Notes: generated by a model not told the origin, from the sequence alone. DNA of 64,000 bases from Candidatus Woesearchaeota archaeon (GCA_016188245.1 JACPIE010000040.1:64365-128364); one strand, 5' to 3'. Counted from the first letter of the stretch, positions 6,585 through 33,080 are shown. Numbers and translations are program-made.

Positions 6585-6595
6585 ATATTGGAAGT

Positions 6596-7964: not shown

Positions 7965-8004
7965 ATGTTGGAAATTTAGAGAAGCCATAAATTCCGCAAA
8001 AAAA

Positions 8005-8469
8005 TTATTTCAGCTTGGAAATCAAGATAGAATATTCTGTTGAAGAAATGTAATAACCTATTTCAATGAGTTGGCTTAAAATTTTAAGCACTTCAGGTTC
8101 AGTTATGATTCTTTTTTTCATAGCTGCAAAAATAACCGTTGTTGTCCTTACTGCGTTAATGCCAAATGCTTTGGCAGCTTTTATAGCAACGGCATCATCG
8201 AGTATAATGCCGTCTTTCTTCTCGATAGCGAGGTTGATTGCTTGCTCCTCTCCTGCTCCAAGCCCGATTTTAGTTTTTCTTTTTGGGTTGATTACCTTCA
8301 GCCATCCGCCCTTAATGGCATTGTATATGCTTATATATCCATCCTTATCTTCTATAAGCACTTCCTCCTTTACAGCAGGAGGGATAAGTATAATCTTGTA
8401 TACTTTCTTAAGCAAGTCAAGCTTGCTTATCCTGCTCAAGCAAATCAGCGCTGTTGCATCTGATATCAA
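8005..8469 (-). CDS. PIN-like nucleic-acid-binding protein (DUF3368/COG2405-type), putative toxin
   Basis: MISDATALICLSRI...ILDDAVAIKAAKAFGI pattern. TTGA overlap with the upstream UPF0175-like gene. Alternative (TTG) start. Confidence 0.65.
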   Translation of the reverse strand: MISDATALICLSRISKLDLLKKVYKIILIPPAVKEEVLIEDKDGYISIYNAIKGGWLKVINPKRKTKIGLGAGEEQAINLAIEKKDGIILDDAVAIKAAKAFGINAVRTTTVIFAAMKKRIITEPEVLKILSQLIEIGYYISSTEYSILISKLK

Positions 8470-8792
8470 GATTTTCCCTCTAGAAGCCTAAGATCACTTT
8501 CAAGATCTTCTTTGGAATAGCCCGTCCAGTTTATATTATTCTCTTTTGCAATATCAAGCATTTCCCATAGCGAAAGCCCGCATTCTTCAGCAGCGCTGCC
8601 GATTGAAATTTTGTGCTGTCTCAATCTTTCAATAGAGTTTTGTATTTTCCAAGAGCTTACAGCTTTAGCTAACAGCCTTCTAATGGCTTCTGAGCGGTCT
8701 GCCTGCCAGTTTTTCTCAATTTCAGACAAATCCTTGACAAGTGAATTATCAAGCCTTACCGAAATAGTCGTTGTCATTGTATTCAATATCAT
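8466..8792 (-). CDS. UPF0175/RHH-type antitoxin-like protein
   Basis: N-terminal TISVRLDNSLVKDLSEIE...EAIRRLL is RHH-like. The C-terminal SIGSAAEECGLSLWEMLDIAKENNI is typical of UPF0175 partners of DUF3368 PIN proteins. Confidence 0.65.
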   Translation of the reverse strand: MILNTMTTTISVRLDNSLVKDLSEIEKNWQADRSEAIRRLLAKAVSSWKIQNSIERLRQHKISIGSAAEECGLSLWEMLDIAKENNINWTGYSKEDLESDLRLLEGKS

Positions 8793-8832
8793 ACAATGTA
8801 AACCACTATATAAAGCTTTACTTTTTATTATT

Positions 8833-8886
8833 TATCACTCCTTCATAGTAAATAACCAAAAGATTTATAAAGGGCAGAAACAATGG
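8833..8886 (+). promoter_or_regulatory. Recurrent promoter block, copy d
   Basis: TATCACTCCTTCATAGTAAATAACCAAAAGATTTATAAAGGGCAGAAACAATGG. TATA at 8864-8871, ATG at 8894. Confidence 0.75.
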
Positions 8887-8893
8887 TGTTTGC

Positions 8894-10078
8894 ATGCAAA
8901 GATTGGAAGATATGTTGAAGATGGCACTGCCTGTTGGTAGCTCTGGAAGTGAAACGGCTGGATTGCATGAAGCTTATCAAAATGGAATTACAAGAAGGGG
9001 TTTTCTTGGGGGAGGGATTGCTTCAGCAGCGTTAGTGGCAAGCGGATGCGCTACAACTAAAAATACTCCACATTCTTCAATTGATGATAGAACTATACAG
9101 ACTGCTAGATCGAATAGCATAGATTCAGTACAGGACCCTTTTGTCAGGGATGTTGCGATGTACTTTGATGCCAAATTTAGGACAGGAGACGCTGCTGTTA
9201 AGGAACAAGCTGAACGAAAGTTGACGCGACAAGGAGTTGTAAAAAGAGATTTGGTATTCCCGGAAAACATTAACAGATTATTAATACCTAAAGGTGTATT
9301 TCTAACATCATATACTGTATGGCAGGGCCCTAATCAATATATTGAAACAGCTGCAATTTATAGAATAGCCAAAAAAGATTTTTTTAACGGGTTTTTTCAT
9401 AATGGAAAATGGAGCAACAGATTTTCCGGTTTTCAATTGGAAGGTTATGACCGATATTTGTTTGGTCCGCAAATCTTTGCAACGCATAAAATGCCTGCCA
9501 GATCGGTATATTATACGATTAGGCACCCAGATGGCAAAGCTGAGCGTGTCATTGGAATCCAGCAAGATGCTATACAGAGAGCTTACTCCAGATTTGGCCC
9601 AAAGATAGTGGCAGAAGTGATCCAAGATGTATCAATGGAGGAAGCCGCCCATCTTTTGTTTAGAAAACCGTATAAGTATCCAACAATGTTGGTTGGATTA
9701 GGCGCCTATAGGGTTGATGGCGATATTGATTTAAAGAGTCCAAAAGATGTTGCAGCCAAATTAGCGACGATGGAGTTAACCAAAAATCCGCTTGTAGGTA
9801 TTTATCTTGACCTAATCAGTTTTGTGAATGTAGATGGCAAAAAAGTGCCAAGGGCGCAGGCAACATACGACCCCGGAAATCAGGTTGTTCACCACAATGG
9901 TTTTCTTAGCATAGAAAATGGACTCAGGGAATTAAGTCCAAAGTTAAACAGACATAACGATAAGCTTGCAGCAAATCCGAGTGAATCATCTTATGAACAA
10001 TTGAATTATAGTTTGGCTCACCTGCTTCAAACTAAAGGCAGGGAAACTCTAATCGATTTTCCTTCCGCCGGTAGATAA
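8894..10078 (+). CDS. Tat-signal putative lipoprotein, paralog of 3563-4687 with a degenerate HExxH (EExxH)
   Basis: ITRRGFLGGGIASAALVASGCA is a Tat motif followed by a lipobox-like L-V-A-S-G-C. SMEEAAHLLFRKPY aligns with TMHEIGHSIFRTPY of the paralog. Confidence 0.7.
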   Translation: MQRLEDMLKMALPVGSSGSETAGLHEAYQNGITRRGFLGGGIASAALVASGCATTKNTPHSSIDDRTIQTARSNSIDSVQDPFVRDVAMYFDAKFRTGDAAVKEQAERKLTRQGVVKRDLVFPENINRLLIPKGVFLTSYTVWQGPNQYIETAAIYRIAKKDFFNGFFHNGKWSNRFSGFQLEGYDRYLFGPQIFATHKMPARSVYYTIRHPDGKAERVIGIQQDAIQRAYSRFGPKIVAEVIQDVSMEEAAHLLFRKPYKYPTMLVGLGAYRVDGDIDLKSPKDVAAKLATMELTKNPLVGIYLDLISFVNVDGKKVPRAQATYDPGNQVVHHNGFLSIENGLRELSPKLNRHNDKLAANPSESSYEQLNYSLAHLLQTKGRETLIDFPSAGR

Positions 10079-10116: not shown

Positions 10117-10247
10117 CGAAAAGCTTATTAATGACTGGTTGCAGTTTTCATTAAAAGAACGGTATTTTTAAATATGTCAAAAAAAGAGGCAGTGTTAGTA
10201 ATAATCCTAGTTATAATTGCCCTACTTGCAAATGTCTCTTATGCTGC
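10117..10247 (+). repeat. Segmental duplicate (copy B): promoter plus signal-peptide region of the giant gene
   Basis: See 4767-4967. CGAAAAGCTTATTAA is a BRE/TATA-like element, and TTTTTAAATATG lies just before the start. Confidence 0.85.
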
Positions 10248-13200
10248 CCAGCAGCAAAAGGGATTTTGGGCTAAAGTGAAAGAGGCAATAAACAGCCTTC
10301 TCTACTGGAGTCCAGAGGACTTGGCTTCCATTTATGCAGATGCATTAAAGACTAATGCAAAGGCAGTTAAAGATGAGAATGGGAATATTATCTTAGTGAT
10401 TGTTGAAGTAGATGGGGGAGTAATCAGAGTAACCAAGTTATCAGATATTCTAAAAACCGCTGACCAACTTCCAACTCCTGAAGAAAAAGCATCATATTTA
10501 AGAGAACTAGTCATAGCCAATGGCGGCCAAAATATTGTGGAAAGGGCAGAGTGGATAGATATAACAAAGCCTGATGTTAGCCAAGTAGCAAAAGATTTTT
10601 TTCCAGGGGTCGTGGAAAAAGTTGCAAAAGAAGAAGCAGAAAAGAATAGAGAACAGGATGCATATGTTCAGCAGCAAAAGCTTCAAGCTGCAGTTAACTT
10701 AATGAGTGACCAGGAAAAATTAGCCAAATCTTTTGAATTGTTAGAAGCTACTGAATCATTGGGTTCAGCACAGGTTTCTTATTCTGGAAACACGAGAACA
10801 ATCTCTTTTGAAGATGGAAACCAATTATCATATGTATGGAATGGCGAGGAATGGGTGCCGGAAAGTTACGAAGAGGGGGCTATTCCAGTCATTGAAGAAG
10901 AAAGTGGTGTAGTTAAAGAACCGCCTAAGTTCTTTTCTAATAAACCTAACTTTAAGCTTGTAACTGATCAATCAAATGTAAAAATTTGGCAGGAAAAAAA
11001 TATATTCATAAAGGTTATTGGAGAGGGAGCTATAAATATCGAATCTTCTGGAATGGACATTTCCAAAGCTCTTAAACTTATAGCCCTCGGAGTTCATATT
11101 GAAATTAGCAGCAACGCCCGTGGCAGTGCATTCAGGATTACTGCTGAAAAAGGTACAATTTCAGTAAGTGCCAGTGATGGAAAGGCAATCGAATTTACCG
11201 ATGTTAAAAGCATTGAGCTGTCTGAACCAAAAAATACAGTATACAACACAGAGGAAGGAATTATTCATAATGGACCGATAGTGCAAACAATAACTGTCAG
11301 AGGGAAACAAACCCAGAATATTGTTGAAACATTTGTAATTGGTGTGGCAACTATCCCTAATTTAGCTACACATGTCTTAATTAAACAGGTTAGTGCAGTG
11401 CATAGTCCTGAAATAACGGCTAGCGGAGGCGGTTTGTCTTATGATTTTGCACCTAAACAAGATGAAAAGATTACAGCAACTTTTAACGGAGAAAACCCAA
11501 TGGCTTATGAGCCTGTGAATTTAGAACATCCCTTTGAATCCTTATCCAGTTTGCAGTTTGGACCTGCTGAAATTGAAACAAAAAGAGGCAATACACTAGA
11601 AAAGCTCATAAGCAACAGTGAAAGATTTATGCTAACAAAAAGTGAAACTCAACCGAATGGAGAAAAAATAAATGATGTTTTAATTGATTTAAACCGGCCA
11701 CAAATTTTAGGAATTAGTAAGTTTACACATGAAACAACAGGTAAAGAAATGATTGCCGTCACAGTTCTGGGTGTGAATACGGCAGGGAGCCTTGAAACTA
11801 ATGTAGTGGCAATGGTAGATGATGGGAACAGCTTCAGAATGATAGATGCAATCAGCAGCAGAGGCGGAAATAGGGAGATTACCGGCGACCCGAGGTTCAA
11901 TGTTTGGGCTCCTAATGTAGAGGCATTTGATGATGGCTCGATGTTTCAAATCGTAGGAACCTCACCAACTCACTATCTGTCACAAAGGATGATGTCAATC
12001 GGTCCCAAGAGCGGATTAACAGCCAATGAATTTAGGGCAATGAGCCCATCTGCATTGGTGGAAAAGCTCCTAATCAACCCAAATCTTGGTGGAGGAATCG
12101 CTACCCCGAGTAGAAGCCAATTTCAAATGAACAATGGAGAACTATTTATCAAGTCTAATAACAACAATCAAATAAAATTAAATAATATTGAAGTTGAGTC
12201 TATTGAAGTAACCCCTCCCTATGTTAGTTTTGAAAGAGGTGCAGCTAGTCCAGGTCGGACTCTTGTTAAGGGAACAGGAGACCGAATATCTGATGGTAAA
12301 AAAGTTGAGTTTCAATTTTGGGTGGAAGATTACGGGTACCCGCCTGTAGAACCAACAATTCAAATCAATTATGTAAGAGAAAAAAAAATAGAGCTTGCTC
12401 CTGAAATTACCACAGTAATTGAACAAGAGCCAATATCCACAGAGTCTAACCCTTTCTCCATCTTCATTCCTCTGCCAACATACTACCCAGCAATTGACTT
12501 TCCAACTCGGCAGCCTCAGCCTAGGATTTGCGGCGATGGAATATTAAATGTTCCGGAGCAATGCGAAAGCCCGAACACAAATGACAATCCTTTCTGCGTC
12601 AACAACCCTATCCTGATGTGCTTAAACAGGAAAACTGCGATAAGAGATGCGTATGGGAAATGCAATTCGGGATGCAGCTGCCAATATGACAGCCCTGCAA
12701 GCGTGTCGTGCATCAAGGGATTGTGCGGGGCAAACTGCTCAAATAACAATGATTGTGCAACTGGCACGCTTTGCAGCAGAACATCGTGCTTATGCATTGC
12801 CCCTCCCCTTAATGGGCTATGCGGCGATGGAATCATCCAGTCTCCAAACAATGACAGCATACATGAAGAATGCGATGGGGATGCTGATGAAATATTGAAT
12901 GATACTGGATTCTGCAAAATTGTAAGGAAATGTGTTGACTGCAAATGGCAGCCCCTTTTAGATTCTTCTGATTCTCAGTTTGAATTATGTGATGGAATAG
13001 ACAACAACTGCAATAGTTTAATAGATGAAAACATCCAGATAACCCCGTCACAAAATGAAGAAGGCTATTGCAATAGCCAAGTTGGAGTCTGCTACAACTC
13101 AAAGAAGAGATGCGGCGGATTGTCTGGATTTGCAGAATGCTCAACTCAAGACTATAACTACACAGGACAATATGAGCAGGTAGAGGCATTGTGCGACAAT

Positions 13201-16200
13201 CTCGATAATGACTGTGATGGCTCGATTGATGAAGGCTGTCCATGTGTCATAAATTCAACAAAATCATGCGGGCAAAGCAATTTTGGAGTTTGCAAGCTGG
13301 GAGTCCAAAATTGCACTGAGCAGGGAGTCTGGGGACTGTGCCAGGGCGCCATTTACTCTGAATCAAACAAGGAAGCAGTGTGCAACAGCATTGATGATGA
13401 CTGTGACGGAATTATTGATGAAAATTTGAAGAACAGGTGCGGCGAATGCGGGCAGCTGCCTGAAGAGGTTTGCGACTATATAGATAATGACTGCGATGCG
13501 GAAATGCAAAGCCCGACAACAAAGTGCACGCAGGAATGCGTTGGAATGTGGATGCTTCAAGGTGCAAAATGCATATTCAATGAATGCGGCAGCGGGTGCG
13601 GCCCTGATAACGTTGATACTTTCAAAACTGAAGTAGAGTGCAAGATTAAATCTATGGATAGTGAAAGAATTTGCCCGCAGCGATGCGTTGGAATGTGGAT
13701 GCTTCAAGGTGCAAAATGCATATTCAATGAATGCGGCAGCGGGTGCGGCCCTGATAACGTTGATACTTTCAAAACTGAAGTAGAGTGCAGCAAGACTGCA
13801 GGGCAATTCTCCCTAAAATCAGATAAAATAACATTTGATAAAGACCAAAATTTAACTGTAACATGGAACAATCCCGGCACTGCAAATTGCGTTGATTCCC
13901 AGATATGCGAACAAAGCAATGCAGAAGCGGGTAAAAATCCAGGGTGCGGCAATGGGCAATGCATGGAATATTTGCATACTGTTACTACAACAATACCGGG
14001 CATCTGCCGCATTGTTGACGAAGGGGGGCAGGTATCCTGCGATCCCGATGGGGTTTCTGAAACTTCTACTTCATACCCTGAAAGCTGCCAGGTATGCCCC
14101 CAAGACTGCGGCCAATGCGCCCCAAAATGCACCAACACTACAACATGCGCTCCTTCAACACCGAACTACTATGATTTTATTACATTTGTGCCTTTGGGGC
14201 AGTCAAGCTATGACGGCTTTCCAATTGAATATGTAAAAGGGGCAAAAGCAGGCACAGGCAGCATTAAAGTACCTCCTGTTCCCGGCAAGTATGAGCTGGT
14301 TTATGTTGACTATTCAACCAAAAACATTATTGCCAAAGGCTCTGCTATCACCGTTAATCCGCCAAAAGATGCTGTATGCGCGGCAGATTCAAAACAATGT
14401 CCTGACGGCAGCTCAGTTGGAAGAGACCCAGCTAACAACTGCAACTTTTATCAATGCAAAAAATCAATATTAAATGCTGATTTTGCCAATCCTTGCCCTT
14501 TCGGCACAATCTGCAAGGGAGTTTACGCTGACGGCATTGACAGCAACGCAAACGGAATTATTGATGAGGGGATAGATGAAGACGTCAAGACCAATCCCTC
14601 CGGAAACTATACAAACTGGTGCGATGCAAATGCATGCACAAAGATAAAGAGGACATGCTCCAAAGTGTTGGAAGATGAATTCAAAAAAATATACAGGAAA
14701 AAAGACAAGTCAAAGCTGGAAGAATACATAAAAGGAAGCGAATATTTCTCATGCCCTCCTGATGATAGCGATGCAGTTTGCTGCGAAAATCCAAATTCAT
14801 GCGTCTACAACGGGAAGTGCTATGCCAATGGCAGCATTGAAGACATTGGCAACGACGGAATAATGGACATGTGTGTAGTAGAAAGCCCAGGAACATGGGT
14901 TGTCAATTACGAAACCAACTGCATAGACGGAATAACCAATGACGCAGATCCTTTGATAGACTGCCAAGACCCTGATTGCGATGGGTTGCCGGGCCAAAAT
15001 GGGGCAATATGCTGCCATTCTGCAAATGACTGCCCGCAGGACGACTGCGTTGCGGAAAGCTGCGCGAATAATGAATGCGCGCTCACAAGCAGAAATTTAT
15101 GCGATTCGGCCGAATGCCCCCAAAATTCATTCTGCAATGCAACAGCAGGAGACTGCAAAGCAGCGGATGAAAGCAGCAGCGTGTGCTTAAATTGTGTTGC
15201 AGACTCAACTTTAATGTCATGGAACTCCACATCCCATATTGACGCCGGCAAGGAGTATTCAAGCAATCTAAATGTGTTCAACTCATTGTTTAATTCAGAT
15301 GCGCTTTCCTGCCCGCCTTCAAGCTGCTCCAAATCAAACTGCAGCTGCTTTGATTCGTCAAACAGCATTGCAAATCACAATGCTGCAATATCTGGAGGGA
15401 ACTGCTGCGGAGACGATCCAAATGAATATTTCAAGAAAGACTATTTTGGAGGAGAATGCGCAAATAATGCAAGCGATTGTGTTTGGCCAACTGGAGACTC
15501 GCAAAAAAGCAACACAGGAAATGCTGAATGGTGGTGCTACCTTCATGAATGGTCCCAATGCGATAACAGCTCGATCGGCAGCAAAGCCGGAGCTGTAACC
15601 TGCGCCGGAATTTCTGGAAACAACAGATGGATGTTAAATCCTGCTCCTGAAAGCCAATACTCATGCAATGACTTAAAAGACAATGATGGAGACGGGGCAG
15701 CGGATTGCGAGGATAGCGACTGCTACAGCGCGCTTCAGGGGAAAGTGACAGATGGGTCAAACTCCCCAATCAACGGGGCGTCTGTGATTGTCAGGAAAGG
15801 CAGCAGCCAAATTGCATCCTTGACGACAAATTCCCAGGGAGATTATAACGCAAGCTCATTATCATGCGGAAACTATCAGGTGTCTGCTTCGCATTATGAA
15901 TATTCAACACAATCCAGGTTTTTCACGGTCAATGCATTGCAGCAGTATAACATAGACATTGTTTTGGGAGCTGAAAACTCATGCGAAGCTGACTGCACCC
16001 TGGCATATGACGAGACGATACATGCTTCCTGCGCAAACATAAACGGCTGCACCTTTTATGACGACAAAGCAAAGGAAATATGCGATTTTGCAAAGCCGGG
16101 CTGGGTCAGGGATTATAATGAAACACACTACATTGCTTGCGCTTCAGGCTCTCCTGAAGCCAAGATTGAGTTAAAAGCAAGCATAAGCTGCGCATCAGGA

Positions 16201-16275
16201 ACCCTTGTCAAGATTACAAGAATCGTGCTTTACAACGGCGAGCCTGTCAAGCTTGTTGTGGCAGCATGCGGCTAG
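10174..16275 (+). CDS. Giant (2033 aa) secreted Cys-rich surface protein with MopE-like CxxxD(N/D)DCDGxxDE motifs and a C-terminal CarboxypepD_reg-like domain
   Basis: Signal peptide MSKKEAVLVIILVIIALLANVSYAA. Motifs CDGIDNNCNSLIDE, CDNLDNDCDGSIDEGC, CNSIDDDCDGIIDE, CDYIDNDCD and CNDLKDNDGDGAADCEDSDC. GKVTDGSNSPINGASVIVRKG...TNSQGDY is a regulatory-like beta-sandwich. Very high Cys content after about residue 780. Confidence 0.85.
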   Translation: MSKKEAVLVIILVIIALLANVSYAAQQQKGFWAKVKEAINSLLYWSPEDLASIYADALKTNAKAVKDENGNIILVIVEVDGGVIRVTKLSDILKTADQLPTPEEKASYLRELVIANGGQNIVERAEWIDITKPDVSQVAKDFFPGVVEKVAKEEAEKNREQDAYVQQQKLQAAVNLMSDQEKLAKSFELLEATESLGSAQVSYSGNTRTISFEDGNQLSYVWNGEEWVPESYEEGAIPVIEEESGVVKEPPKFFSNKPNFKLVTDQSNVKIWQEKNIFIKVIGEGAINIESSGMDISKALKLIALGVHIEISSNARGSAFRITAEKGTISVSASDGKAIEFTDVKSIELSEPKNTVYNTEEGIIHNGPIVQTITVRGKQTQNIVETFVIGVATIPNLATHVLIKQVSAVHSPEITASGGGLSYDFAPKQDEKITATFNGENPMAYEPVNLEHPFESLSSLQFGPAEIETKRGNTLEKLISNSERFMLTKSETQPNGEKINDVLIDLNRPQILGISKFTHETTGKEMIAVTVLGVNTAGSLETNVVAMVDDGNSFRMIDAISSRGGNREITGDPRFNVWAPNVEAFDDGSMFQIVGTSPTHYLSQRMMSIGPKSGLTANEFRAMSPSALVEKLLINPNLGGGIATPSRSQFQMNNGELFIKSNNNNQIKLNNIEVESIEVTPPYVSFERGAASPGRTLVKGTGDRISDGKKVEFQFWVEDYGYPPVEPTIQINYVREKKIELAPEITTVIEQEPISTESNPFSIFIPLPTYYPAIDFPTRQPQPRICGDGILNVPEQCESPNTNDNPFCVNNPILMCLNRKTAIRDAYGKCNSGCSCQYDSPASVSCIKGLCGANCSNNNDCATGTLCSRTSCLCIAPPLNGLCGDGIIQSPNNDSIHEECDGDADEILNDTGFCKIVRKCVDCKWQPLLDSSDSQFELCDGIDNNCNSLIDENIQITPSQNEEGYCNSQVGVCYNSKKRCGGLSGFAECSTQDYNYTGQYEQVEALCDNLDNDCDGSIDEGCPCVINSTKSCGQSNFGVCKLGVQNCTEQGVWGLCQGAIYSESNKEAVCNSIDDDCDGIIDENLKNRCGECGQLPEEVCDYIDNDCDAEMQSPTTKCTQECVGMWMLQGAKCIFNECGSGCGPDNVDTFKTEVECKIKSMDSERICPQRCVGMWMLQGAKCIFNECGSGCGPDNVDTFKTEVECSKTAGQFSLKSDKITFDKDQNLTVTWNNPGTANCVDSQICEQSNAEAGKNPGCGNGQCMEYLHTVTTTIPGICRIVDEGGQVSCDPDGVSETSTSYPESCQVCPQDCGQCAPKCTNTTTCAPSTPNYYDFITFVPLGQSSYDGFPIEYVKGAKAGTGSIKVPPVPGKYELVYVDYSTKNIIAKGSAITVNPPKDAVCAADSKQCPDGSSVGRDPANNCNFYQCKKSILNADFANPCPFGTICKGVYADGIDSNANGIIDEGIDEDVKTNPSGNYTNWCDANACTKIKRTCSKVLEDEFKKIYRKKDKSKLEEYIKGSEYFSCPPDDSDAVCCENPNSCVYNGKCYANGSIEDIGNDGIMDMCVVESPGTWVVNYETNCIDGITNDADPLIDCQDPDCDGLPGQNGAICCHSANDCPQDDCVAESCANNECALTSRNLCDSAECPQNSFCNATAGDCKAADESSSVCLNCVADSTLMSWNSTSHIDAGKEYSSNLNVFNSLFNSDALSCPPSSCSKSNCSCFDSSNSIANHNAAISGGNCCGDDPNEYFKKDYFGGECANNASDCVWPTGDSQKSNTGNAEWWCYLHEWSQCDNSSIGSKAGAVTCAGISGNNRWMLNPAPESQYSCNDLKDNDGDGAADCEDSDCYSALQGKVTDGSNSPINGASVIVRKGSSQIASLTTNSQGDYNASSLSCGNYQVSASHYEYSTQSRFFTVNALQQYNIDIVLGAENSCEADCTLAYDETIHASCANINGCTFYDDKAKEICDFAKPGWVRDYNETHYIACASGSPEAKIELKASISCASGTLVKITRIVLYNGEPVKLVVAACG
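13536..13789 (+). repeat. Perfect 107-bp direct repeat (13536-13642 and 13683-13789; 147-bp period) inside the giant gene
   Basis: Letter-by-letter comparison shows identical copies, each encoding CVGMWMLQGAKCIFNECGSGCGPDNVDTFKTEVEC. Confidence 0.9.
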
Positions 16276-16276
16276 A

Positions 16277-16609
16277 ATGAAAAAACAAGAACATGCAAAG
16301 AAAAAAAGGTGGAACTTTCATTTATTGGTTCCTGCACTTGTGCTTGCGGCAGTCTGGCTTGTGTTTTTCAGCATTGGCACATCAAAAAATGAAAAAGATA
16401 GTGATTATAGGGGCGAAGCAATCCAAATGGGCAAAATTGACGAGAATATTTTGAATGGGATTAAGGACATGGAATATAGCAAGGTAAAGGAAACGCTCAA
16501 TGCAACGGGCGATTTCTGCCTTGTTGTTGTTGACGGCCAGAATTCGGTTTTGCTGGAAAAGCATCCGGGCGGCAAAACTCAGGCTGAATTGTGCGATGGA
16601 ATGGTTTGA
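16277..16609 (+). CDS. Small N-terminally anchored membrane protein (110 aa)
   Basis: ATG one nt after the giant-gene stop; its TGA abuts the next ATG. MKKQEHAKKKRWNFHLLVPALVLAAVWLVFF is a TM anchor. Confidence 0.6.
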   Translation: MKKQEHAKKKRWNFHLLVPALVLAAVWLVFFSIGTSKNEKDSDYRGEAIQMGKIDENILNGIKDMEYSKVKETLNATGDFCLVVVDGQNSVLLEKHPGGKTQAELCDGMV

Positions 16610-19600
16610 ATGAACAAAAATACTGCAAAGAAAATTTTGCTGATGATGATGGTAGTGCTGTCTCTGCTGCAGGCCTCTTATGCCGCAAAATGCGATGACC
16701 TTGCGTGCTCTTCGCAGGGGAAAACGTGCATTATTTCAAAAGGAAATGCAAAATGCGCCGATTACTGCAGAACGAAAAACAATAAAACGGCAGCCCCCGC
16801 AAATGCATGCTCTATTGAAAGAGAGTATTGCAATCCATCAACTTTAAAACTTGAGAGCAGGTGCAATATATGCGGCTGCAATAAAGGAGAAGAGTGCAGG
16901 CCTGACGGAAGATGCGTTAAGGTATGCACTGACGGGACTGAAGGCGGAAAATGCTCTCTGCAAAAGCCATTTTTCTGCAATAACGGGATTTTGGAGCAAA
17001 AATCACAGGTATGCGGCTGCGATACCGGAAAAGAGCCTTATCCTGGCGGAACTTGCGCAAAAACAGGCTTTGTTGAAGACACTAGGAAAGAGGACTTTGC
17101 AGAGGGGGACATTGGGTTTGAGCAGGCTTCATTCGTATTCGACAAAAATTCCAATCTTGTTGAGCAGACAGATTTCATAAAAAAACACAGGAGGGCAGAG
17201 ATTATAGAAGGAGGGATTGAAGACCTTGCACTTCAGGGAGAGCCTTTTGCCTCTTCTAATTATCCCGGGCACCCTAATCTCAGCTATAAGCCAAGCCCCA
17301 TTTGCGTTAAAAGCCTTTTGTTGTTCTGCGACTGGATTTCAGACACAAATGAGCCAAGGCACCAAAACCAGCATATTGGAATAAAGTGGCAAACTCCGCG
17401 GACGTTTGATACTGTCTCATTTGCCCAATCATATCTGCACGCAAAAGGCTACAAAATACAATATTTGAAAGACGGAAGCTGGGTCGATGCAACTCAAGAA
17501 AAATCGCTTAGTTATTACCCAAAAGATTATTCCGCCGATTTAAGCAATTTCAATGAAAAACAAGGGGCAAGGCTCATTGAGACAGCAAGCTTCGAGCCTG
17601 TTACATCAACAGCAATGCGAATATTTTTTCCTGAATGCAGCCTGAACTGCAGAGTGGCAAGATTAAATATTTACAACCGAGATGCTGACGAGCTAAGATT
17701 CGCTCCGTTTATGGGCAACCTTGACTTGGGGCACAGGGGATATTATGACCATGCGGCGTTTGTATCAAAAGTCCACGATACTGAAAATGCAGAAACAAGA
17801 TTTGACAGCATTTCAATGAGCTACAGGATAGTAGGCATTCCAAAATCAAAGGGCGTGAACATAGCCCCTGAAGGAAAGCCGATTACTGATGATTACGATT
17901 TAGAAAATGCAAAACAGCTAAGCGATGACAAGCTCTTGAGCCTTCCAACTATAAATGACAAATGGCTTGTATTCCAAGGAGTTGCATCAAAAATTCCTTT
18001 TTACTGGCTTGTCGCCGGCTCATGGGTGAATGGGTACGCAGGCATAGAATGGGACACCACGAGAAAAATCAACAGAGTAAATGTGTATACGGCCACGCCA
18101 ACTCTGCCGTGCAAATCATTCTATGATGTAGAATACTGGGATGGAAACAAATGGAAAAGGGCTGCAAGAGGCTATAACAAGGCAAGCAACGACTATTTTG
18201 ATATGGAATGCGGCTTTAATTCCAATGTGGTATCAACATTTGCAATGGCAGAAGTTTTTGATACTGTAACCACGACCAAGATAAGGGTAAAGCCGCAGTC
18301 ATGGCTTTATATTGCGGAGATTGAGGCTTTTGAGCCTGAAGAATCAACTGGGTTCCAGGCAGGCACGGCAAACGCATCTGTAAAAGTTCAGATAAAAACA
18401 GCGCCAAGCAACAATGGCAAGGTAGGAATCTGGACTGATTGGATGGGGCCCGATGGAACAGACAAGACTTATTTCACAAAACAAAATGAAAAAATAAACA
18501 TAACCATAAAGACAATTTACGATACTGGATTTAAACCCCCTTCCAGCACCGGACTTAAATTCAATGCATGGTCAAGTCCGGAAAATGCGCATCAATCCGA
18601 TGGAAAATTCACTTCCCGCTCATTCAATCTTGCTAATCTATTCAGCAAAAGCGAAGGGGATTCTATAATCTGGACACTAATGAATCCAAAGTCGGAATGG
18701 GGCGCAAGATATCTTCACAAAACTTTGGCTTTCAATGATAAAATCTGGGTGATAGGCGGGCATTCGTCCACCGGGCAAACAAGGTATGGGTGGTTTAATG
18801 ATGTTTGGTCTTCAGGTGATGGAATCAAGTGGGAAAAAACTTCGCCCCAAAATGATTACATCGGCATGCTAATGGAAACATTCGCAATGACTACTTTGGT
18901 TTACAATGGCAAGATGTGGCATATAGGTGGAAACAATGTAAATTTCCTTCCAGCGAGAGCCAATGTTTTTTCCTCGCCGGATGGATATACCTGGACAGAA
19001 GTTATAAGGCAGGCTGCATGGGTTCCAAGATGGAGCCATTCATCAGTGGTTCACGATAACAAGATGTGGGTTATTGGAGGGTATACAGTAAATCCTTGGG
19101 GCGCATCCAGAACTCAAGTCTATGTTCCGGAATCATATCTTAATGATGTATGGCACTCAACTGACGGAGTGGCATGGACGCAAGCAACCAAAAATGCCTC
19201 ATGGTCGGGAAGATATCAGCATGCATCAGTTGCCTTCGACGGGAAAATATGGGTTATGGGGGGAATCTCCTATAAAGAAGGCGTCGTAAATGATGTATGG
19301 TACTCAGAAGATGGCATTAGTTGGACACTTGCTACACAACATGCCCCATGGAGTCCAAGAAGCAATTTTGAAGCTGTAGTCTACGATGACAAAATCTGGG
19401 TTCTGGGTGGAAGCGGTGCAAGCGACGCTTGGTTCTCAAGCGATGGAGTCAAATGGGCAAGAGCTACTCCGAACTCGGCAGTATTGCAGAGATCAGGATT
19501 CAGCGCAACTGTTTTCAAAAATAAGCTTTACTTTACAGGGGGGATTAAAGACTCAAATTACTTCAATGATGTATGGCATTCTGATTTGGTGGGGTGCGAT

Positions 19601-21037
19601 GCCAATGTCTACCTTTCAATGGACAAAGGCCAGACTTTGGCAAAAATCGGAAGCGCCGTAATGGAAGAAAAAGAAACTGTAAAAACAATAAATGCCGGCA
19701 CCGGCAAATTTGGATGGAAATCTGAAGGCTTCAGCAATGAGAATCTTTTGCTGGTTATAGTGCCGGGCAATGACACATTAAATGCCCAGGATTATTCTGC
19801 CTTCAGCTTGAATGTCCCGGAGGGCGCTGAAATAAGCGAAGTTGCCGCTTCTTTGGAAGGAAAATGCAAAGACATATTCCCGAGCATAGACAGCGTTCGC
19901 TTAAGGGTGGGGTACAGCCTGAAAAATGAGAGCCGTCCATTGACGGGAAGGTATGTGCAATTCAAGGCAATTTTAAGCTCGGGCAACGAAAATATTGCAG
20001 TTGGGTTGGATAATTTGAGGATAGCTTACCCGACATCCGGCAACCTGAAGCCAACTTCGAGTATGAAAGACATTGAAAGCCTTGTGAATGTCCCCATCAA
20101 TTTCACAGCCAATGCGCGCGATATTGACGGAACAATCGCAAAGTATGAATGGGATTTTGGAGACGGGAATATTGGCCATGGAAAGAATGCATTGCATGCA
20201 TATAATGAGTCCGGCATTTATGATGCAGAGCTTATTGTTACTGATGATGGCGAACTAAGCTCGTCAGCAAAATTCAAGGTTTACATCAACACATACAACT
20301 GTTTACTGGATGATGACTATGATTCAACAAAAGCAAACGGGCCTAATTATTTTATGTTCACGCCGACAGACCCATTAATCAGGCAAAAGGCAACTGAAGC
20401 AATCCTTGAGTACGCCCAAGAGAAAAAAATTCCGGCAGTGGACATTGACACCAGCATTGAGTTCTTTGAGGCGGCCAACCTGTACGTCACAAGGCATATG
20501 AGCTACAGCATTATCGGCGATGAAGGTTCGCTGAATACAGGATGGGACGGAGAAGCGGCCCCTGCAAAGAGGCTGTTTTCAGATTCTGCAAAGCCGATTT
20601 CAGAAGGCGGAAAAGGCTGCGCTAATGACTATTGCGGAGACTGCGAGGATTTTGCTGTTGCCACTGAAGCTCTTGTGAGGGCAATGGGCGTAAGCCCAAA
20701 ATGTGCTTATGTAAGCTGCGCGTTAACTCACTGCTGGAATGTTTTGAACATTGCAGGAAAGTTTAGGCTCGTGGAACCTCAAAGTGGCTCAATATACTCC
20801 AAATTCAGCTCGGATGCATACAACTGGAAGAACAAGTTCGGTAATGCGGTCTATGCTTCATTCGAGGTTCACAACGATGAAGTGGGCAGGCACTTTACCA
20901 ATAGCGCAGACCCGGCAAAATACACCCTTAATTATCCGGGATCAAGCGGATTGCCGAATCCTGCAAAAAAATGCCCAGATTATGCAGCCTGGAACGGAGA
21001 GGGCGACAACACATATTTTACAGAAATATGCGGATAA
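16610..21037 (+). CDS. Giant (1475 aa) secreted multidomain protein: Cys-rich N-terminus, two discoidin/F5-8C-like domains, Kelch beta-propeller, PKD domain, C-terminal transglutaminase-like cysteine protease core
   Basis: Signal MNKNTAKKILLMMMVVLSLLQASYAA. Kelch-like repeats: KIWVIGGHS, KMWHIGG, KMWVIGGY, KIWVMGG, KIWVLGG, KLYFTGG (about 18670-19580). PKD: YEWDFGDGNIGHGKNALHAYNESGIYDAELIVTDD. Transglutaminase core: GDCEDFAVATEALVRAMGVSPK...THCWNV...LVEPQ (about 20610-20790). Confidence 0.85.
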   Translation: MNKNTAKKILLMMMVVLSLLQASYAAKCDDLACSSQGKTCIISKGNAKCADYCRTKNNKTAAPANACSIEREYCNPSTLKLESRCNICGCNKGEECRPDGRCVKVCTDGTEGGKCSLQKPFFCNNGILEQKSQVCGCDTGKEPYPGGTCAKTGFVEDTRKEDFAEGDIGFEQASFVFDKNSNLVEQTDFIKKHRRAEIIEGGIEDLALQGEPFASSNYPGHPNLSYKPSPICVKSLLLFCDWISDTNEPRHQNQHIGIKWQTPRTFDTVSFAQSYLHAKGYKIQYLKDGSWVDATQEKSLSYYPKDYSADLSNFNEKQGARLIETASFEPVTSTAMRIFFPECSLNCRVARLNIYNRDADELRFAPFMGNLDLGHRGYYDHAAFVSKVHDTENAETRFDSISMSYRIVGIPKSKGVNIAPEGKPITDDYDLENAKQLSDDKLLSLPTINDKWLVFQGVASKIPFYWLVAGSWVNGYAGIEWDTTRKINRVNVYTATPTLPCKSFYDVEYWDGNKWKRAARGYNKASNDYFDMECGFNSNVVSTFAMAEVFDTVTTTKIRVKPQSWLYIAEIEAFEPEESTGFQAGTANASVKVQIKTAPSNNGKVGIWTDWMGPDGTDKTYFTKQNEKINITIKTIYDTGFKPPSSTGLKFNAWSSPENAHQSDGKFTSRSFNLANLFSKSEGDSIIWTLMNPKSEWGARYLHKTLAFNDKIWVIGGHSSTGQTRYGWFNDVWSSGDGIKWEKTSPQNDYIGMLMETFAMTTLVYNGKMWHIGGNNVNFLPARANVFSSPDGYTWTEVIRQAAWVPRWSHSSVVHDNKMWVIGGYTVNPWGASRTQVYVPESYLNDVWHSTDGVAWTQATKNASWSGRYQHASVAFDGKIWVMGGISYKEGVVNDVWYSEDGISWTLATQHAPWSPRSNFEAVVYDDKIWVLGGSGASDAWFSSDGVKWARATPNSAVLQRSGFSATVFKNKLYFTGGIKDSNYFNDVWHSDLVGCDANVYLSMDKGQTLAKIGSAVMEEKETVKTINAGTGKFGWKSEGFSNENLLLVIVPGNDTLNAQDYSAFSLNVPEGAEISEVAASLEGKCKDIFPSIDSVRLRVGYSLKNESRPLTGRYVQFKAILSSGNENIAVGLDNLRIAYPTSGNLKPTSSMKDIESLVNVPINFTANARDIDGTIAKYEWDFGDGNIGHGKNALHAYNESGIYDAELIVTDDGELSSSAKFKVYINTYNCLLDDDYDSTKANGPNYFMFTPTDPLIRQKATEAILEYAQEKKIPAVDIDTSIEFFEAANLYVTRHMSYSIIGDEGSLNTGWDGEAAPAKRLFSDSAKPISEGGKGCANDYCGDCEDFAVATEALVRAMGVSPKCAYVSCALTHCWNVLNIAGKFRLVEPQSGSIYSKFSSDAYNWKNKFGNAVYASFEVHNDEVGRHFTNSADPAKYTLNYPGSSGLPNPAKKCPDYAAWNGEGDNTYFTEICG

Positions 21038-21039
21038 AA

Positions 21040-22239
21040 ATGAAAAAAATAGTTTTATTTTCAATGTGGTTTTTGGTATTAGCAAGCATAAGCTATGCAA
21101 AAATCGAGTTTTACACGGGCAATGTCGAAGTGAATTCTTTTACAGCAACCGCAGATTTAAAAGACAAGGCTTATGTGGATATGGAGTATATTTTAACCGG
21201 AAATGAAGATGTCACAATTGAATTTAACAATGTCCCAAGCAATGCTGAGATTGCAGTTGGAAATCAAAAGCACGGAAATAAGTTTAATCTGCAGGTAAAG
21301 GGGGAAACGGCGATTAATGTAAAATTCACCGAAGAGCTGGGCAACAGCCCATTGAAGCAGTTCTCGGCAAACCCAAACATACTATTCAACGGAAATGTCA
21401 ATTCACGCCCAATAGCTCATTACAGGGCCAGGATTTTAATGCCCGAAAAAGTTGGTGAGCTGTTGGGCTCAAGCGAAAAGCCGACATCAAGCCAAAAGGT
21501 TGATGAACGGCAATTATTTGAATGGCTCAAGTCAGATTCTTACGCAACTGCTTTGACAATAAGCTGGCACAGCCTTGATGTGGATATTGACGTGCAAAGG
21601 CATATCCCGACCATAATAAATAACCAGTTTACTGTTAGGAATGTGATAAGGAATAACGGAAAAGAAATCAGGAATGTAAAGCTCGTGCAGTCATTTTTGG
21701 AAGGCGATGTTGAGGCAGTTGAGCCATTAAGCGAATTCCAGGTGATACTGGCGGGAAATGACATAAGGACAGAGTGGACAAAAGAAATGCCAGTGGTTGA
21801 TGCCGGCGCCGCAATCACATCTTACTACACGCTCAGGGCAAAAAGAACAGGCGAAAACATTGTTTTCAGGCCTCTCGAAGTTTATGTCGATGGCGTGCTC
21901 GCCAAAATTGTTGAAAGAGAAGAATATTTCAGCGCTCCGGATGTTCTCAATTTGACAAGTTTTACTTCAACTGCTGAATCTGCAATGCGGCTTTTGGTGG
22001 AAACTCCTTCTTCAGAAGGCGAGATGATGCCGGGGCGCCCGATTCCTCCGGAAAGCATACCTGTGCCAGAAGCGGTTAAAGAGCAGATTACGCCTGCAGC
22101 GCCTGAAACAGGAAAAGAAGCAATAAGGCAGGCGGCGGGCAAAAAAAACCAGCTTGTCTTATTGGCTGTGTTTGTAATTCTTGTTGCGCTTGTTACTCTG
22201 GCTTATAGGAAATTCAGGGAGAAAGGCAGGCTGGGATGA
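21040..22239 (+). CDS. Secreted protein with C-terminal TM anchor (400 aa), function unknown
   Basis: Start chosen at MKKIVLFSMWFLVLASISYA (ATG 21040, 2 nt after the upstream stop). The C-terminus is LVLLAVFVILVALVTLAYRKFREKGR. Confidence 0.7.
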   Translation: MKKIVLFSMWFLVLASISYAKIEFYTGNVEVNSFTATADLKDKAYVDMEYILTGNEDVTIEFNNVPSNAEIAVGNQKHGNKFNLQVKGETAINVKFTEELGNSPLKQFSANPNILFNGNVNSRPIAHYRARILMPEKVGELLGSSEKPTSSQKVDERQLFEWLKSDSYATALTISWHSLDVDIDVQRHIPTIINNQFTVRNVIRNNGKEIRNVKLVQSFLEGDVEAVEPLSEFQVILAGNDIRTEWTKEMPVVDAGAAITSYYTLRAKRTGENIVFRPLEVYVDGVLAKIVEREEYFSAPDVLNLTSFTSTAESAMRLLVETPSSEGEMMPGRPIPPESIPVPEAVKEQITPAAPETGKEAIRQAAGKKNQLVLLAVFVILVALVTLAYRKFREKGRLG

Positions 22240-22288
22240 TTTCCCGGGTCCAACCCCAACTTTTATAAACATATCTTCATTCTCGAAA

Positions 22289-22804
22289 ATGATGAAGCGA
22301 TTGAACCTTCCGAAAGAAAGGACATTCATAGGGCCAGCTTTGATTTGGAAAAGGGTGGCGGCTTTTTTCATAGATATTACAGTCATAAACCTTGTTGTGT
22401 TCTTTCCGTTCAGAAAATTATTTCGGGGCATTATGCCGCAGGATTATTCTTTTGCAGAAGCTTATGGGATTTTAAGCAGCACAAGCTATTCGGGCTTTTT
22501 GACTTCAGTTTCTTTGGTTATGTCAGTTTTGGTGATTATGTATTTTTACATGATGGAAAGAAAGATGGCCCAAACAATCGGAAAGATGATAATGAAAGTG
22601 TATGTTGCAGGCGACAATAGTGGCAATAATGGGCCGAAGGCGTGGCAGCTGCTGGCAAGGAATGCCGTATTCATACCTATGTTCCCTTTCATATTGCTGT
22701 GGATTTTGGACCCTTTATTCATGTTTTTTACCAAAACAAACCAAAGATTAAGCGAGATACTTGGCAAAACAAGAGTGGTTGAAACATACAGCCTGGAGCA
22801 GTAA
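22289..22804 (+). CDS. RDD-family-like membrane protein
   Basis: WKRVAAFFIDITVINLVVFF fits the R...D pattern, with 3 predicted TM. Start at MMKRLNL (22289); the ORF extends to 22181 but overlaps the upstream gene. Confidence 0.5.
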   Translation: MMKRLNLPKERTFIGPALIWKRVAAFFIDITVINLVVFFPFRKLFRGIMPQDYSFAEAYGILSSTSYSGFLTSVSLVMSVLVIMYFYMMERKMAQTIGKMIMKVYVAGDNSGNNGPKAWQLLARNAVFIPMFPFILLWILDPLFMFFTKTNQRLSEILGKTRVVETYSLEQ

Positions 22805-22815
22805 CAGGCACCCCA

Positions 22816-23019
22816 ATGGCAAAAATGGCAGAAGAGCAAAAAGTATTTTTGTTGAGGGTAGATGTGATGACAAACAACATACAGACATCAATGAAAACCC
22901 AGAATGTTTCTCCCCAGGAGGCAATCGGATTTTTGGAGATGGCAAAAGACCAGATACTTGACAACCTGAAGCAGGGAAGGAAGGACATATTCCAGGCTTT
23001 CAAGAAAGATGAGGGCTAG
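22816..23019 (+). CDS. Small hypothetical protein (67 aa)
   Basis: ORF only, tightly packed before sppA (the stop abuts ATG 23020). Confidence 0.4.
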   Translation: MAKMAEEQKVFLLRVDVMTNNIQTSMKTQNVSPQEAIGFLEMAKDQILDNLKQGRKDIFQAFKKDEG

Positions 23020-23940
23020 ATGGAAAAATCAGATTTCAGGTGGGGCTATGCGATATTTGTGCTGCTGCTCTTAAGCATACTCGGATTTATGGCAGCCGGA
23101 ATATTAAGCTTGTTTGTAGGTGTGAATGTCAATAGCCTGGGCGGGAATGTTGCGCTGATACCAATAGGTGGGGTCATTGTCGGAACAGATGATTCCGGAT
23201 TCCTCTTTGAAAGCGTCACAGCCTCTCCGGACGCCATTGAACTCATAGAAAAAGCCGATAAAAATCCGGGCATAAAAGCGATAGTTCTTGAAATAAACAG
23301 CCCGGGAGGATCGGCAGTCGCTTCAGAAGAGATAGCAAATGCCGTCAGGAAAACAAACAAGACAACTGTCGCATGGATACGTGAAGTTGGAGCTTCAGGA
23401 GCTTATTGGATTGCTTCTGCCTCAGACCATATTGTTGCAAACAAAGTTTCTATAACCGGCTCGATTGGAGTTATTGCCTCGTACCTTGAATTTCCTGGGC
23501 TATTGGAAGACTACAATGTGACTTACAGGAGGCTTGTCTCGGGAAAATATAAGGACATGGGGAGCCCTTTCAAGGAGATGACTGATGAAGAAAAAGCAAT
23601 TTTCCAGCAGAATCTGGATCTAATAAGGGACTATTTTGTAAGTGAGGTTGCTAAAAACAGGAATTTGAGCAAAAAAGATGTTGATAAGGTTGCAAATGGG
23701 CTGTTTTATCTTGGCATTCAGGCAAAAGAGCTTGGGCTGGTTGATGAGGTTGGAGGCAAAGACGAGGTTATAGCTTATGTTGAAAAAAAAGAAGGCATAA
23801 AGGCTGAGATTGTCGAATACAAAAAGGAGAAAGGTTTGCTTGAAATTTTGGGAGAAATTTTCAGCAGGCAGTCTTTTTTTGTCGGCAGGGGCATTGGGAG
23901 CAGCTTGCTTGATAAGGGCAATTTAAGGATTGAAACTTGA
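23020..23940 (+). CDS. sppA: Signal peptide peptidase SppA (S49, 36K type)
   Basis: VLEINSPGGSAVASEEI and GASGAYWIASASDHIVANKVSITGSIGV motifs, with an N-terminal TM. Confidence 0.85.
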   Translation: MEKSDFRWGYAIFVLLLLSILGFMAAGILSLFVGVNVNSLGGNVALIPIGGVIVGTDDSGFLFESVTASPDAIELIEKADKNPGIKAIVLEINSPGGSAVASEEIANAVRKTNKTTVAWIREVGASGAYWIASASDHIVANKVSITGSIGVIASYLEFPGLLEDYNVTYRRLVSGKYKDMGSPFKEMTDEEKAIFQQNLDLIRDYFVSEVAKNRNLSKKDVDKVANGLFYLGIQAKELGLVDEVGGKDEVIAYVEKKEGIKAEIVEYKKEKGLLEILGEIFSRQSFFVGRGIGSSLLDKGNLRIET

Positions 23941-24757: not shown

Positions 24758-24892
24758 GTAAGTCTGGACCAAAAAAAGTAATATATACGCTTCTCAACAT
24801 TATATGGCTAGTTGCTATGATGGCATTAGTTGTAAAAGTATACGGTTAATCTTTTTCTTTAAAATTTTTAGTGTAGCTCTTGATAATTGCAC

Positions 24893-24908
24893 TTGTATGT
24901 GCACAATT
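24893..24908. repeat. Left 16-bp inverted repeat TTGTATGTGCACAATT bracketing the fic gene
   Basis: Exact reverse complement of 25894-25909 (AATTGTGCACATACAA). Confidence 0.9.
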
Positions 24909-24952
24909 AACCGAAAGATTTATATATTATGTGCCCATACAATATTGTATGG
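24909..24952 (+). promoter_or_regulatory. fic promoter (AACCGAAAGATTTATATA) plus 18-bp palindrome CCATACAATATTGTATGG over the start codon
   Basis: The BRE/TATA core is identical to the recurrent block core. The perfect palindrome at 24935-24952 contains ATG 24949. Confidence 0.7.
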
Positions 24953-33079: not shown

Positions 33080-33080
33080 T

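Follow-up and report, generated by a model that had tools for sequence, protein, structure and literature searches.

Layout of the p1-p4 block and its recurrence

We analyzed a 64,000-nucleotide (nt) stretch of a contig from Candidatus Woesearchaeota archaeon (GCA_016188245.1, JACPIE010000040.1:64365-128364), hereafter the window, and within it a block of four genes, here called p1 to p4, that encode exported or membrane-anchored proteins (Table 1). The four open reading frames (ORFs) are co-directional and are separated by spacers of 1, 0 and 2 nt at p1/p2, p2/p3 and p3/p4, the junctions reading TAG-A-ATG (16275/16277), TGA-ATG (16609/16610) and TAA-AA-ATG (21037/21040). Coordinates and spacing are exactly those of a first-pass annotation, which had proposed an operon of four packed genes. 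The four ORFs stand; a fifth gene after p4, encoding an RDD-family protein, had been missed (Pfam PF06271, 63.5 bits vs. a cut-off of 24.1). Gene callers place it right after p4 in four independent assemblies. Its called start at 22184 overlaps p4, and its first in-frame ATG, at 22289, lies 50 nt past the p4 stop codon.

All four products are predicted to be exported or anchored, as first proposed. Cleavable Sec-type signals are seen in p1, p3 and p4, each with a basic stretch and a hydrophobic core, ending in VSYA (before A), ASYA (before A) and ISYA (before K), respectively, while p2 has an N-terminal anchor helix. The SYA motif had been ascribed to every product; it holds for these three, while the p2 helix (amino acids (aa) 12-36) lacks it. 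Among the remaining ORFs of the window with 100 aa or more, none has xSYA within its first 45 residues. Since S-x-A conforms to the standard -3/-1 signal peptidase rule, and the homologues use different small residues, SYA is best seen as a lineage habit and not as a special tag.

The p4 protein is 100% identical to NCBI entry HYV80_07390, a 'hypothetical protein' of Candidatus Woesearchaeota archaeon, and the window also encodes split archaeal RNA polymerase genes, ribosomal protein S7 and NusA. We conclude from this that the cluster is chromosomal and belongs to a DPANN archaeon, known as a woesearchaeal metagenome-assembled genome (MAG), in agreement with the archaeal, likely host-dependent origin first suggested; the organism is probably tiny and host-dependent. 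A viral or mobile origin of the cluster was ruled out by its G+C content (0.38-0.46 at 10-22 kb, inside the range of the window) and by the RNA polymerase and ribosomal genes on the contig. Scans of the window for Rfam families and tRNAs gave no match. The ORFs scanned, which were not an exhaustive set, included no reverse transcriptase, and no search aimed at diversity-generating retroelements was made.

To follow synteny, six-frame hidden Markov model (HMM) searches were run on all fetched loci (L numbers). The block proves to be conserved among other Woesearchaeota (30-78% identity); a lack of such conservation would, by the criterion of the first-pass annotation, have refuted its proposal. 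The order p1-p2-p3-p4 is complete in L002 (70-86% identity) and in L009, from Woesearchaeota RIFCSPHIGHO2_01_FULL_38_11 (30-54% identity). Partial arrangements are p2-p3-p4 (L012), p3-p4 followed by a p1-like Cys-rich gene (L003, L013), a p3-like gene followed by p4 (L010, L014) and, in L001/L008, a gene resembling the p1 C-terminus and two p2-like genes before a p3 homologue, at which the contig ends. Homologues of p2 precede the p3-type gene in five loci, and p1-like genes lie nearby in six. A p4 homologue directly follows the transglutaminase-terminated gene in eight of the nine loci with downstream DNA (the window, L002, L003, L009, L010, L012, L013 and L014), with a gap or overlap of at most 14 nt each time. 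All named relatives are archaeal, five of them Woesearchaeota and one labelled 'Euryarchaeota archaeon SM23-78'.

The N-terminal parts of the p3-type proteins are far less constant. The partner protein in L010 has 4444 aa, with 13 CHB_HEX_C repeats and LamG, and those in L013 and L014 carry LamG and discoidin domains. Identity to the homologue P0004 is 49% over the C-terminal 360 aa of p3 vs. 32% over the N-terminal part, and no other stretch of p3 is as well conserved as its final 320 aa, which hold the PKD and transglutaminase-fold domains. On these comparisons the constant core is the PKD domain, the putative transglutaminase-fold domain and p4, with N-terminal domains that are swapped between lineages.

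Predicted domains of the four proteins and their neighbourhood

The C-terminus of p3 is, as modelled, a transglutaminase-fold domain, consistent with the transglutaminase-like head proposed in the first-pass annotation. A search of 1.84 billion representative proteins with a profile built from four orthologues defined a family of at least 122 clusters (50% identity) at E <= 1e-3, 64 of them at E <= 1e-10, in which the domain mostly occupies the extreme C-terminus of proteins of 800-4400 aa. Transglut_core was recognized (E <= 1e-3) in 22 of 67 relatives scanned, with a best E of 8e-9, and DUF553 in five; PKD, LamG, CARDB, FG-GAP and F5/8C were among their other domains. The L009 orthologue, at 23.7 bits, passes the Transglut_core gathering score. 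Over 132 aligned domain hits the triad columns are nearly invariant, with Cys in 117 of 120, His in all 116, and Asp (75) or Glu (41) in 116. The presumed catalytic residues of p3 are C1345 in GDCEDFA (codon 20642-20644), H1374 in HCWN (20729-20731) and E1389 in VEPQ (20774-20776). The residues of the Cys-His-Asp core first described (GDCEDFA...HCWN...EP) are thus present in order, although the acid is Glu in p3 and Asp in most relatives.

An AlphaFold2 model of the domain, built on a 32-sequence alignment, scored 85.6 for predicted local distance difference test (pLDDT) and 0.88 for predicted template modelling (pTM). It puts C1345 (domain residue 120) at the start of a helix, and H149 and E164 at the edges of the adjacent strands 150-156 and 159-163, the layout of a papain-like alpha+beta core. 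In sequence, the predicted Cys-His-Glu triad is intact. The top Foldseek matches in the PDB all have the transglutaminase fold (LapG, 4u65 and 4fgq; 3isr, a putative cysteine protease; PNGase, TglA, Rad4, menin and protein 4.2), with probabilities of 0.8-1.0. Sequence searches of the PDB with the domain alone or with profiles A1/A4 gave nothing significant. Their best match was LapG (E 0.081), and in this non-significant alignment GDCEDYAI falls opposite GDCEDFAV. The p3 C-terminus has no NCBIfam match, and Peptidase_C93, the bacterial transglutaminase-like cysteine proteinase (BTLCP)/LapG family, was matched neither in p3 nor among the 25 commonest families of the relatives. By sequence, the domain is a divergent subfamily, most members of which Pfam thresholds miss. 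Its odd number of Cys would be compatible with four disulfides and one free thiol.

Upstream of this domain, p3 comprises a signal peptide (aa 1-25), a Cys-rich module (aa 27-150) and a series of predicted binding domains. Two discoidin-like domains had been claimed. Alone, these stretches are sub-threshold in Pfam (F5_F8_type_C_2, E 0.064), but a profile of eight such repeats from p3 and homologues (profile A2) matches sugar-binding modules of beta-galactosidase (8q2h, E 1.4e-6) and NagH (2ls6, E 0.002). The L009 orthologue comes closer to the model (E 6e-5, 24.1 bits vs. 27.8), and F5_F8_type_C was found in six of the 67 relatives (best 4e-23). The Kelch propeller and the PKD domain, likewise named in the first-pass annotation, were both recovered, the former by PF24681 (E 1e-22), Kelch_1 (E 2e-21) and the Kelch structure of LZTR1 (9mey, E 4e-9), the latter by PKD_4 (E 3e-15) and collagenase PKD structures (E 3e-14). 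In pairwise alignments the Kelch repeats lie within an insertion of about 484 aa (aa ~630-1113) that homologues P0003 and P0004 lack and that is peculiar to the window lineage and its 78% relative; the predicted propeller is, on this evidence, a lineage-specific insertion.

The p4 protein has a signal peptide (aa 1-20), two predicted beta-sandwich domains (aa ~25-297), a disordered Pro/Glu-rich linker (aa 301-359) and, as first noted, a C-terminal anchor, made of a transmembrane helix (aa 367-392) and a basic tail. It matches nothing in Pfam or NCBIfam. A model from a four-sequence alignment is of moderate quality (pLDDT 69 overall, about 80-90 in the ectodomain), and its Foldseek matches are generic beta-sandwiches, from which we draw no function. 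The family is tiny, with four clusters in 5.8 billion proteins and none found by pattern scan of GTDB representative genomes and Joint Genome Institute (JGI) metagenome contigs. Word-indexed protein searches also gave few relatives, nine for p3 and one, then four, for p4. Archaeosortase/PGF-CTERM-type anchoring of p1 and p3 was ruled out, as neither has a C-terminal tag; they end in ...VVAACG and ...TEICG, respectively, without a hydrophobic segment. The p4 C-terminus has no PGF-like motif.

The giant p1 is as Cys-rich as first described. After a signal peptide (aa 1-24) comes a Cys-free region to about aa 760, and all 116 Cys (5.7% of the protein) follow residue ~770 (aa 770-2033). The N-terminal 750 aa have no Pfam or PDB match. 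At least six MopE-like motifs had been counted; by regular expression and PF11617 (E 7e-14, 52 bits vs. a cut-off of 27, four stretches) the strict motifs number four, at residues 939, 1007, 1070 and 1100. Two more acidic, double-disulfide-type repeats near 1624 and 1828 match NCBIfam NF033662 below its cut-off (37 vs. 41 bits). The NCBIfam scan of p1 gave just NF033662, NF052345 and TIGR04134, and no match to TIGR04201, the TraA-type myxobacterial Cys-rich repeat. The MopE-type region is 54% identical to the p1-like gene of L009, and the C-terminal part is 39-86% identical in L001/L008, L002 and L009. The 147-bp duplication could be either a recent expansion or an assembly effect. In L009 the 3' end of the p1-like gene (4725-5308) runs on in another frame, 60% identical to p1 aa 1933-2033, suggesting that this MAG has either a frameshift or a sequencing error there. 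Elsewhere in the window, a membrane-anchored DsbA/thioredoxin-like protein (59254-60171; Thioredoxin_4, E 1e-25) is a plausible extracytoplasmic disulfide-forming enzyme for Cys-rich exported proteins.

Neither p2 nor its family has a Pfam match, and p2 has none in NCBIfam. It consists of a basic N-terminus, the anchor helix and a conserved ectodomain of about 70 aa (IDEN..L...Y..K..L.A.GDFC), and its family, with HMM matches in five loci, is made up of small proteins with a single N-terminal helix and this ectodomain. A paralogue heads a type IV pilus-like cluster on the minus strand of the window (32681-42926), which encodes a T2SSE ATPase, two T2SSF proteins and pilin-like proteins. In the paralogue, and in the relatives of p2 from L001 and L012, the N-terminus reads ..K-S-Q-(A/S)-W-S-x-D and is followed by a hydrophobic helix, resembling the KSQ(A/S)A(L/M)EF of the pilin-like genes beside T2SSE/T2SSF. 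The module of L013 comes immediately after T2SSF and two pilin-like genes, and in L014 a single pilin-like gene lies upstream. On motif and genomic context only, p2 may thus be pilin-like. Neither this nor the paralogue had been noticed in the first-pass annotation, nor had the lineage-specific nature of the Kelch insertion. A Bro-N domain gene is apparently inserted in the pilus-like cluster at 41445-42278. Between the pair of p1 C-terminus-like and p2-like genes and the second p2-like gene of L001, genes of toxin-antitoxin or defence type are found (AbiEii, MazE-like, DUF4258, Polbeta; 6324-9073).

Table 1. Positions of the p1-p4 genes, their predicted domains and related features in the window
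Feature	Position	Strand	Remarks
p1	10174..16275	+	2033 aa, secreted (predicted)
p1 MopE-type region, four CxxxD(N/D)(D/N)C(D/N) motifs	12976..13521	+	aa 935-1116; Pfam PF11617 and regular expression
p1 in-frame 147-bp tandem duplication, 1.8 copies, 97% identical	13525..13789	+	repeats a 49-aa Cys-rich module
p1 CarboxypepD_reg beta-sandwich (aa 1854-1931) and conserved C-terminal domain (aa 1933-2033)	15733..16272	+	Pfam E 2e-16
p2	16277..16609	+	110 aa, N-terminal anchor helix
p3	16610..21037	+	1475 aa, secreted (predicted), multidomain
p3 two discoidin/CBM32-like galactose-binding-type domains	17216..18337	+	aa ~203-358, ~415-576
p3 Kelch beta-propeller	18707..19579	+	aa ~700-990
p3 PKD domain	20084..20269	+	aa 1159-1220
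p3 predicted transglutaminase-fold domain	20285..21034	+	aa 1226-1475, 9 Cys
p4	21040..22239	+	399 aa, predicted type I membrane protein
Fifth gene, RDD-family polytopic membrane protein	22184..22804	+	Pfam RDD E 3e-17
Pilin-like ORFs, KSQ(A/S)... N-termini	40785-41315, 39817-40797, 34119-34616, 33553-34023, 32681-33079	-	
T2SSE ATPase	36812-38272	-	pilus-like cluster, alongside two T2SSF genes
p2 paralogue, ..KKSQSWSLD and hydrophobic helix	42510..42926	-	138 aa; p2 family HMM E 8e-34

Downstream of the RDD gene lie a 67-aa ORF (22816-23019) and an S49 (SppA-like) peptidase gene, the whole stretch spanning 22184-23940; an RDD and S49 pair is also found near the transglutaminase-domain protein P0023 in L015 (9534-11135). 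The S49 gene is followed by genes for a Fic protein and a 1239-aa S8 subtilase (26192-29911). The long C-terminal extension of the subtilase has a 65% identical counterpart in a gene close to the L009 module (15446-16585), and the wider neighbourhood is therefore also syntenic. Upstream of p1 (8894-10078) is a gene whose product has a twin-arginine-like signal (TRRGFLGG) together with a lipobox-like ASGC; beside the module in other loci this gene is not conserved, and L009 has an unrelated lipoprotein-like gene at that position. An AAA_14/DUF4143 ATPase gene (6717-7964) and the Fic/DOC gene (24880-25887) flank the surface-protein region, and we saw no link between them and the module. In a 635-aa ORF (30777-32684), an amino-acid permease (E 8e-56) is followed at the C-terminus by a class I methyltransferase domain, an unusual combination. 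The RNA polymerase genes are on the minus strand (47624-55485) in the order B'' (55485-53971), B' (53877-52075), a 386-aa A''-like ORF with Rpb1 domain 5 (52038-50878), a 558-nt gap and A' (50320-47624), then NusA-KH and S7; A'' before A' is the reverse of the usual archaeal order.

Proposed function of the module and alternative readings

We tentatively propose, giving it a little less than an even chance, that p1-p4 form a lineage-specific exported surface module of Woesearchaeota, in which an adhesin with a built-in cysteine enzyme is docked on p4. The p1-p4 genes, with the RDD gene, would be co-transcribed and translationally coupled. Having no anchor of its own, p3 would dock by its conserved C-terminal module onto the beta-sandwich ectodomain of p4, itself standing on a flexible stalk of about 60 aa, and its variable N-terminal domains would face outward and bind glycans. 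The p1 protein would be a stalk or fibre stabilized by disulfides and Ca or other metal, and p2 a small, pilin-like subunit through which the set may be connected with type IV pilus machinery. The transglutaminase-fold domain would be an active thiol enzyme (a peptidase/isopeptidase or a transamidase) acting on a conserved self component, either p4 or the conserved C-terminus of p1, to fix or release the adhesin, following a logic similar to that of LapG/LapD/LapA but with the enzyme fused to the adhesin. The case for a self target is indirect and comes from the pattern of conservation, since the PKD-transglutaminase end and p4 are conserved while the binding domains vary. The first-pass interpretation is borne out in part, by the predicted fold, the conservation of the block and the DPANN nature of the organism; as for the target, which it suggested might be a partner cell surface, the conservation pattern argues for a self component over a variable host surface.

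Several observations weigh against this proposal. The p3 domain itself scores only 16.2 bits (E 0.013) against Transglut_core (PF01841), below the cut-off of 23, and its Foldseek matches have weak E-values (best 1.6e-3) and template-modelling (TM) scores of 0.3-0.48. In L015 the domain of P0023 is internal and has no p4 neighbour, an exception to the pairing. The N-terminus of p2 in the window reads KKKRWNFH... where its relatives have KSQ(A/S), and Pfam pilin and class III models match no member of the p2 family. The loci all come from one phylum, and part of the synteny may reflect inheritance rather than selection. Finally, the contact between p3 and p4 is one that we infer from co-occurrence only, as we do, from predictions of this kind, every functional statement on the module.

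The same parts could instead make up a tool directed at a partner cell, a reading we consider unlikely. Its lectin-type domains would bind the glycosylated envelope of a host, and the transglutaminase-fold domain would cut (as PeiW and PeiP do) or cross-link host envelope proteins, fixing the symbiont or opening a contact site. The organism being a DPANN archaeon, the strong conservation of the catalytic triad, the sugar-binding-type domains and the association of the module with pilin-like genes and pilus loci all speak for it. Ultrasmall cells in groundwater are joined to their hosts by pili-like structures (PMC7906910), and PeiW and PeiP provide a precedent, as transglutaminase-type enzymes that cleave the archaeal cell wall (PMC2989375, PMC4592898). 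Host-facing parts would nevertheless be expected to vary, whereas the conserved parts here are the enzyme domain and p4, and the end of p3 that carries the enzyme is presumably the cell-proximal one. In addition, no similarity of p3 to PeiW or PeiP was detected in a fold search of the viral library BFVD, which gave no named match, and no host of this archaeon is known.

A role in nutrient scavenging, which appears improbable, would make p3 and its relatives secreted or surface-bound proteases, equipped with carbohydrate-binding modules and breaking down glycoproteins or polymers from the environment, the neighbouring genes encoding other exported hydrolases. CBM32-like, LamG, CHB_HEX_C and PKD domains are typical of secreted hydrolases, the S8 subtilase and S49 peptidase genes lie just downstream, and a giant S8-C25 protease gene adjoins the family member in L015. 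This explanation, however, leaves the strict pairing with p4, the pilin-like p2 and the Cys-rich, non-enzymatic p1 unaccounted for, and Pfam and NCBIfam scans found no glycoside hydrolase catalytic domain in p1-p4.

Two further proposals are both distinctly improbable. In the first, p1, p3 and p4 would be components of the cell's own wall or S-layer-like envelope, with the domain serving as a true transglutaminase that cross-links a covalent sheath. The predicted fold and triad would suit such a role, as would the very large size, export and disulfide richness of the proteins, and the p1 beta-sandwich bears a weak likeness to an anammox S-layer protein model (22.6 bits vs. a cut-off of 1400). 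Core envelope components are nonetheless unlikely to be as rare as these families, given the few p4 clusters and the empty pattern searches described above, and domain content varies strongly between close lineages. In the second, p2 would load p3 and p4, and possibly p1, onto or beside a type IV pilus, an exchangeable lectin/propeller head would pick a host glycan, and the enzyme would covalently lock onto the host envelope or cut it locally. If true, such a pilus-associated device would be a modular, host-range-determining attachment organelle with no described archaeal counterpart. Lastly, a docking-only module without catalysis, in the manner of Rad4, menin or protein 4.2, is very improbable: several top fold matches are inactive proteins of this kind, but inactive members of the fold such as Rad4 and protein 4.2 have lost triad residues, while Cys, His and Asp/Glu are kept in 97-100% of the 132 domain hits.

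The proposal of an enzyme-bearing adhesin docked on p4 gives four 'hypothetical proteins' a place in a defined, conserved module and makes that module a testable candidate for DPANN surface attachment. The parts open to test are the putative catalytic residue C1345, the predicted pairing of the PKD-transglutaminase end with p4 and the variable head, which perhaps tracks partner or substrate specificity. Three protein families also emerge from the analysis: a divergent one with the transglutaminase fold, comprising at least 122 clusters, and two small orphan ones, p4 and p2, of which p2 ties the module to a type IV pilus locus.

Comparison with known systems

Neither the transglutaminase fold nor the accessory domains are new, and giant surface proteins are already a known idea for DPANN archaea. 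We found no description in the literature of the divergent C-terminal subfamily, its obligate pairing with p4, a pilin-like p2 with a paralogue in a pilus locus, or the conserved four-gene arrangement. In the library searched, no paper joins Woesearchaeota with transglutaminase, and those on DPANN and transglutaminase concern other topics. To our knowledge, Woesearchaeota have no cultured representative, and outside a few cultivated lineages we know of no account of how DPANN archaea attach to partners or surfaces.

Bacterial type IV pili carry tip complexes of PilY1 and minor pilins, in which small pilins are encoded beside a large beta-propeller adhesin. The putative pilin-like p2 beside a large propeller-bearing adhesin, with a p2 paralogue in a pilus gene cluster, recalls this arrangement. 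There is, however, no homology; the propeller is confined to the window lineage, and motif and context are what suggest that p2 is a pilin.

An archaeal and bacterial transglutaminase-like superfamily was reportedly described by Makarova, Aravind and Koonin in 1999. The p3 domain shares with this Transglut_core/DUF553 superfamily the order G-x-C-x-x-[FY]-[AS], then His, then Asp, as well as the predicted fold and a frequent fusion to PKD and other surface-protein domains. The p3 subfamily is nevertheless divergent (16 bits vs. 23, with just a third of relatives reaching E 1e-3) and differs by an extra N-terminal helical subdomain, a conserved framework of nine Cys, its position at the extreme C-terminus and its obligate pairing with a p4-family gene.

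PeiW and PeiP of methanogen phages are also transglutaminase-type Cys-His-Asp enzymes that act on an archaeal envelope and are fused to envelope-binding repeats (PMC2989375, PMC4592898). They show no sequence or fold-library match to the p3 domain, however, and their binding domains are different; p3 is moreover cellular and not viral.

Myxobacterial TraA has a lectin-type domain on a long Cys-rich repeat region (MopE-like CxxD..DC), for which the role of a rigid stalk in cell-cell recognition has been proposed (PMC3325183). Taken together, p1 and p3 likewise combine lectin-type domains with a Cys-rich, MopE-like predicted stalk. In contrast to TraA, p1 does not match TIGR04201, there is neither a PA14 domain nor a MYXO-CTERM tag, and lectin and stalk are on separate proteins.

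The LapG/LapD/LapA system of Pseudomonas and Legionella is built around a BTLCP (PMC3032545, PMC4359373). LapG and the p3 domain share the predicted fold of a transglutaminase-type Cys-His-Asp enzyme and a near-identical active-site string (GDCEDYAI vs. GDCEDFAV), LapG structures being the best Foldseek matches, and in both cases an enzyme is encoded beside a giant, repeat-rich adhesin and held, or in p3 predicted to be held, by a membrane-anchored partner. The two nevertheless differ in several ways. The module is archaeal, with no periplasm, outer membrane or cyclic di-GMP receptor. LapG is a free protease of about 200 aa, whereas here the enzyme forms the C-terminal end of a lectin-type protein of 1475 aa that does not match the LapG family model and has Glu as its acidic residue, and p4 is a predicted beta-sandwich protein unrelated to LapD. 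If the enzyme does anchor or release the adhesin, the module would be an archaeal counterpart to the Lap adhesion switch of bacteria, assembled from different parts.

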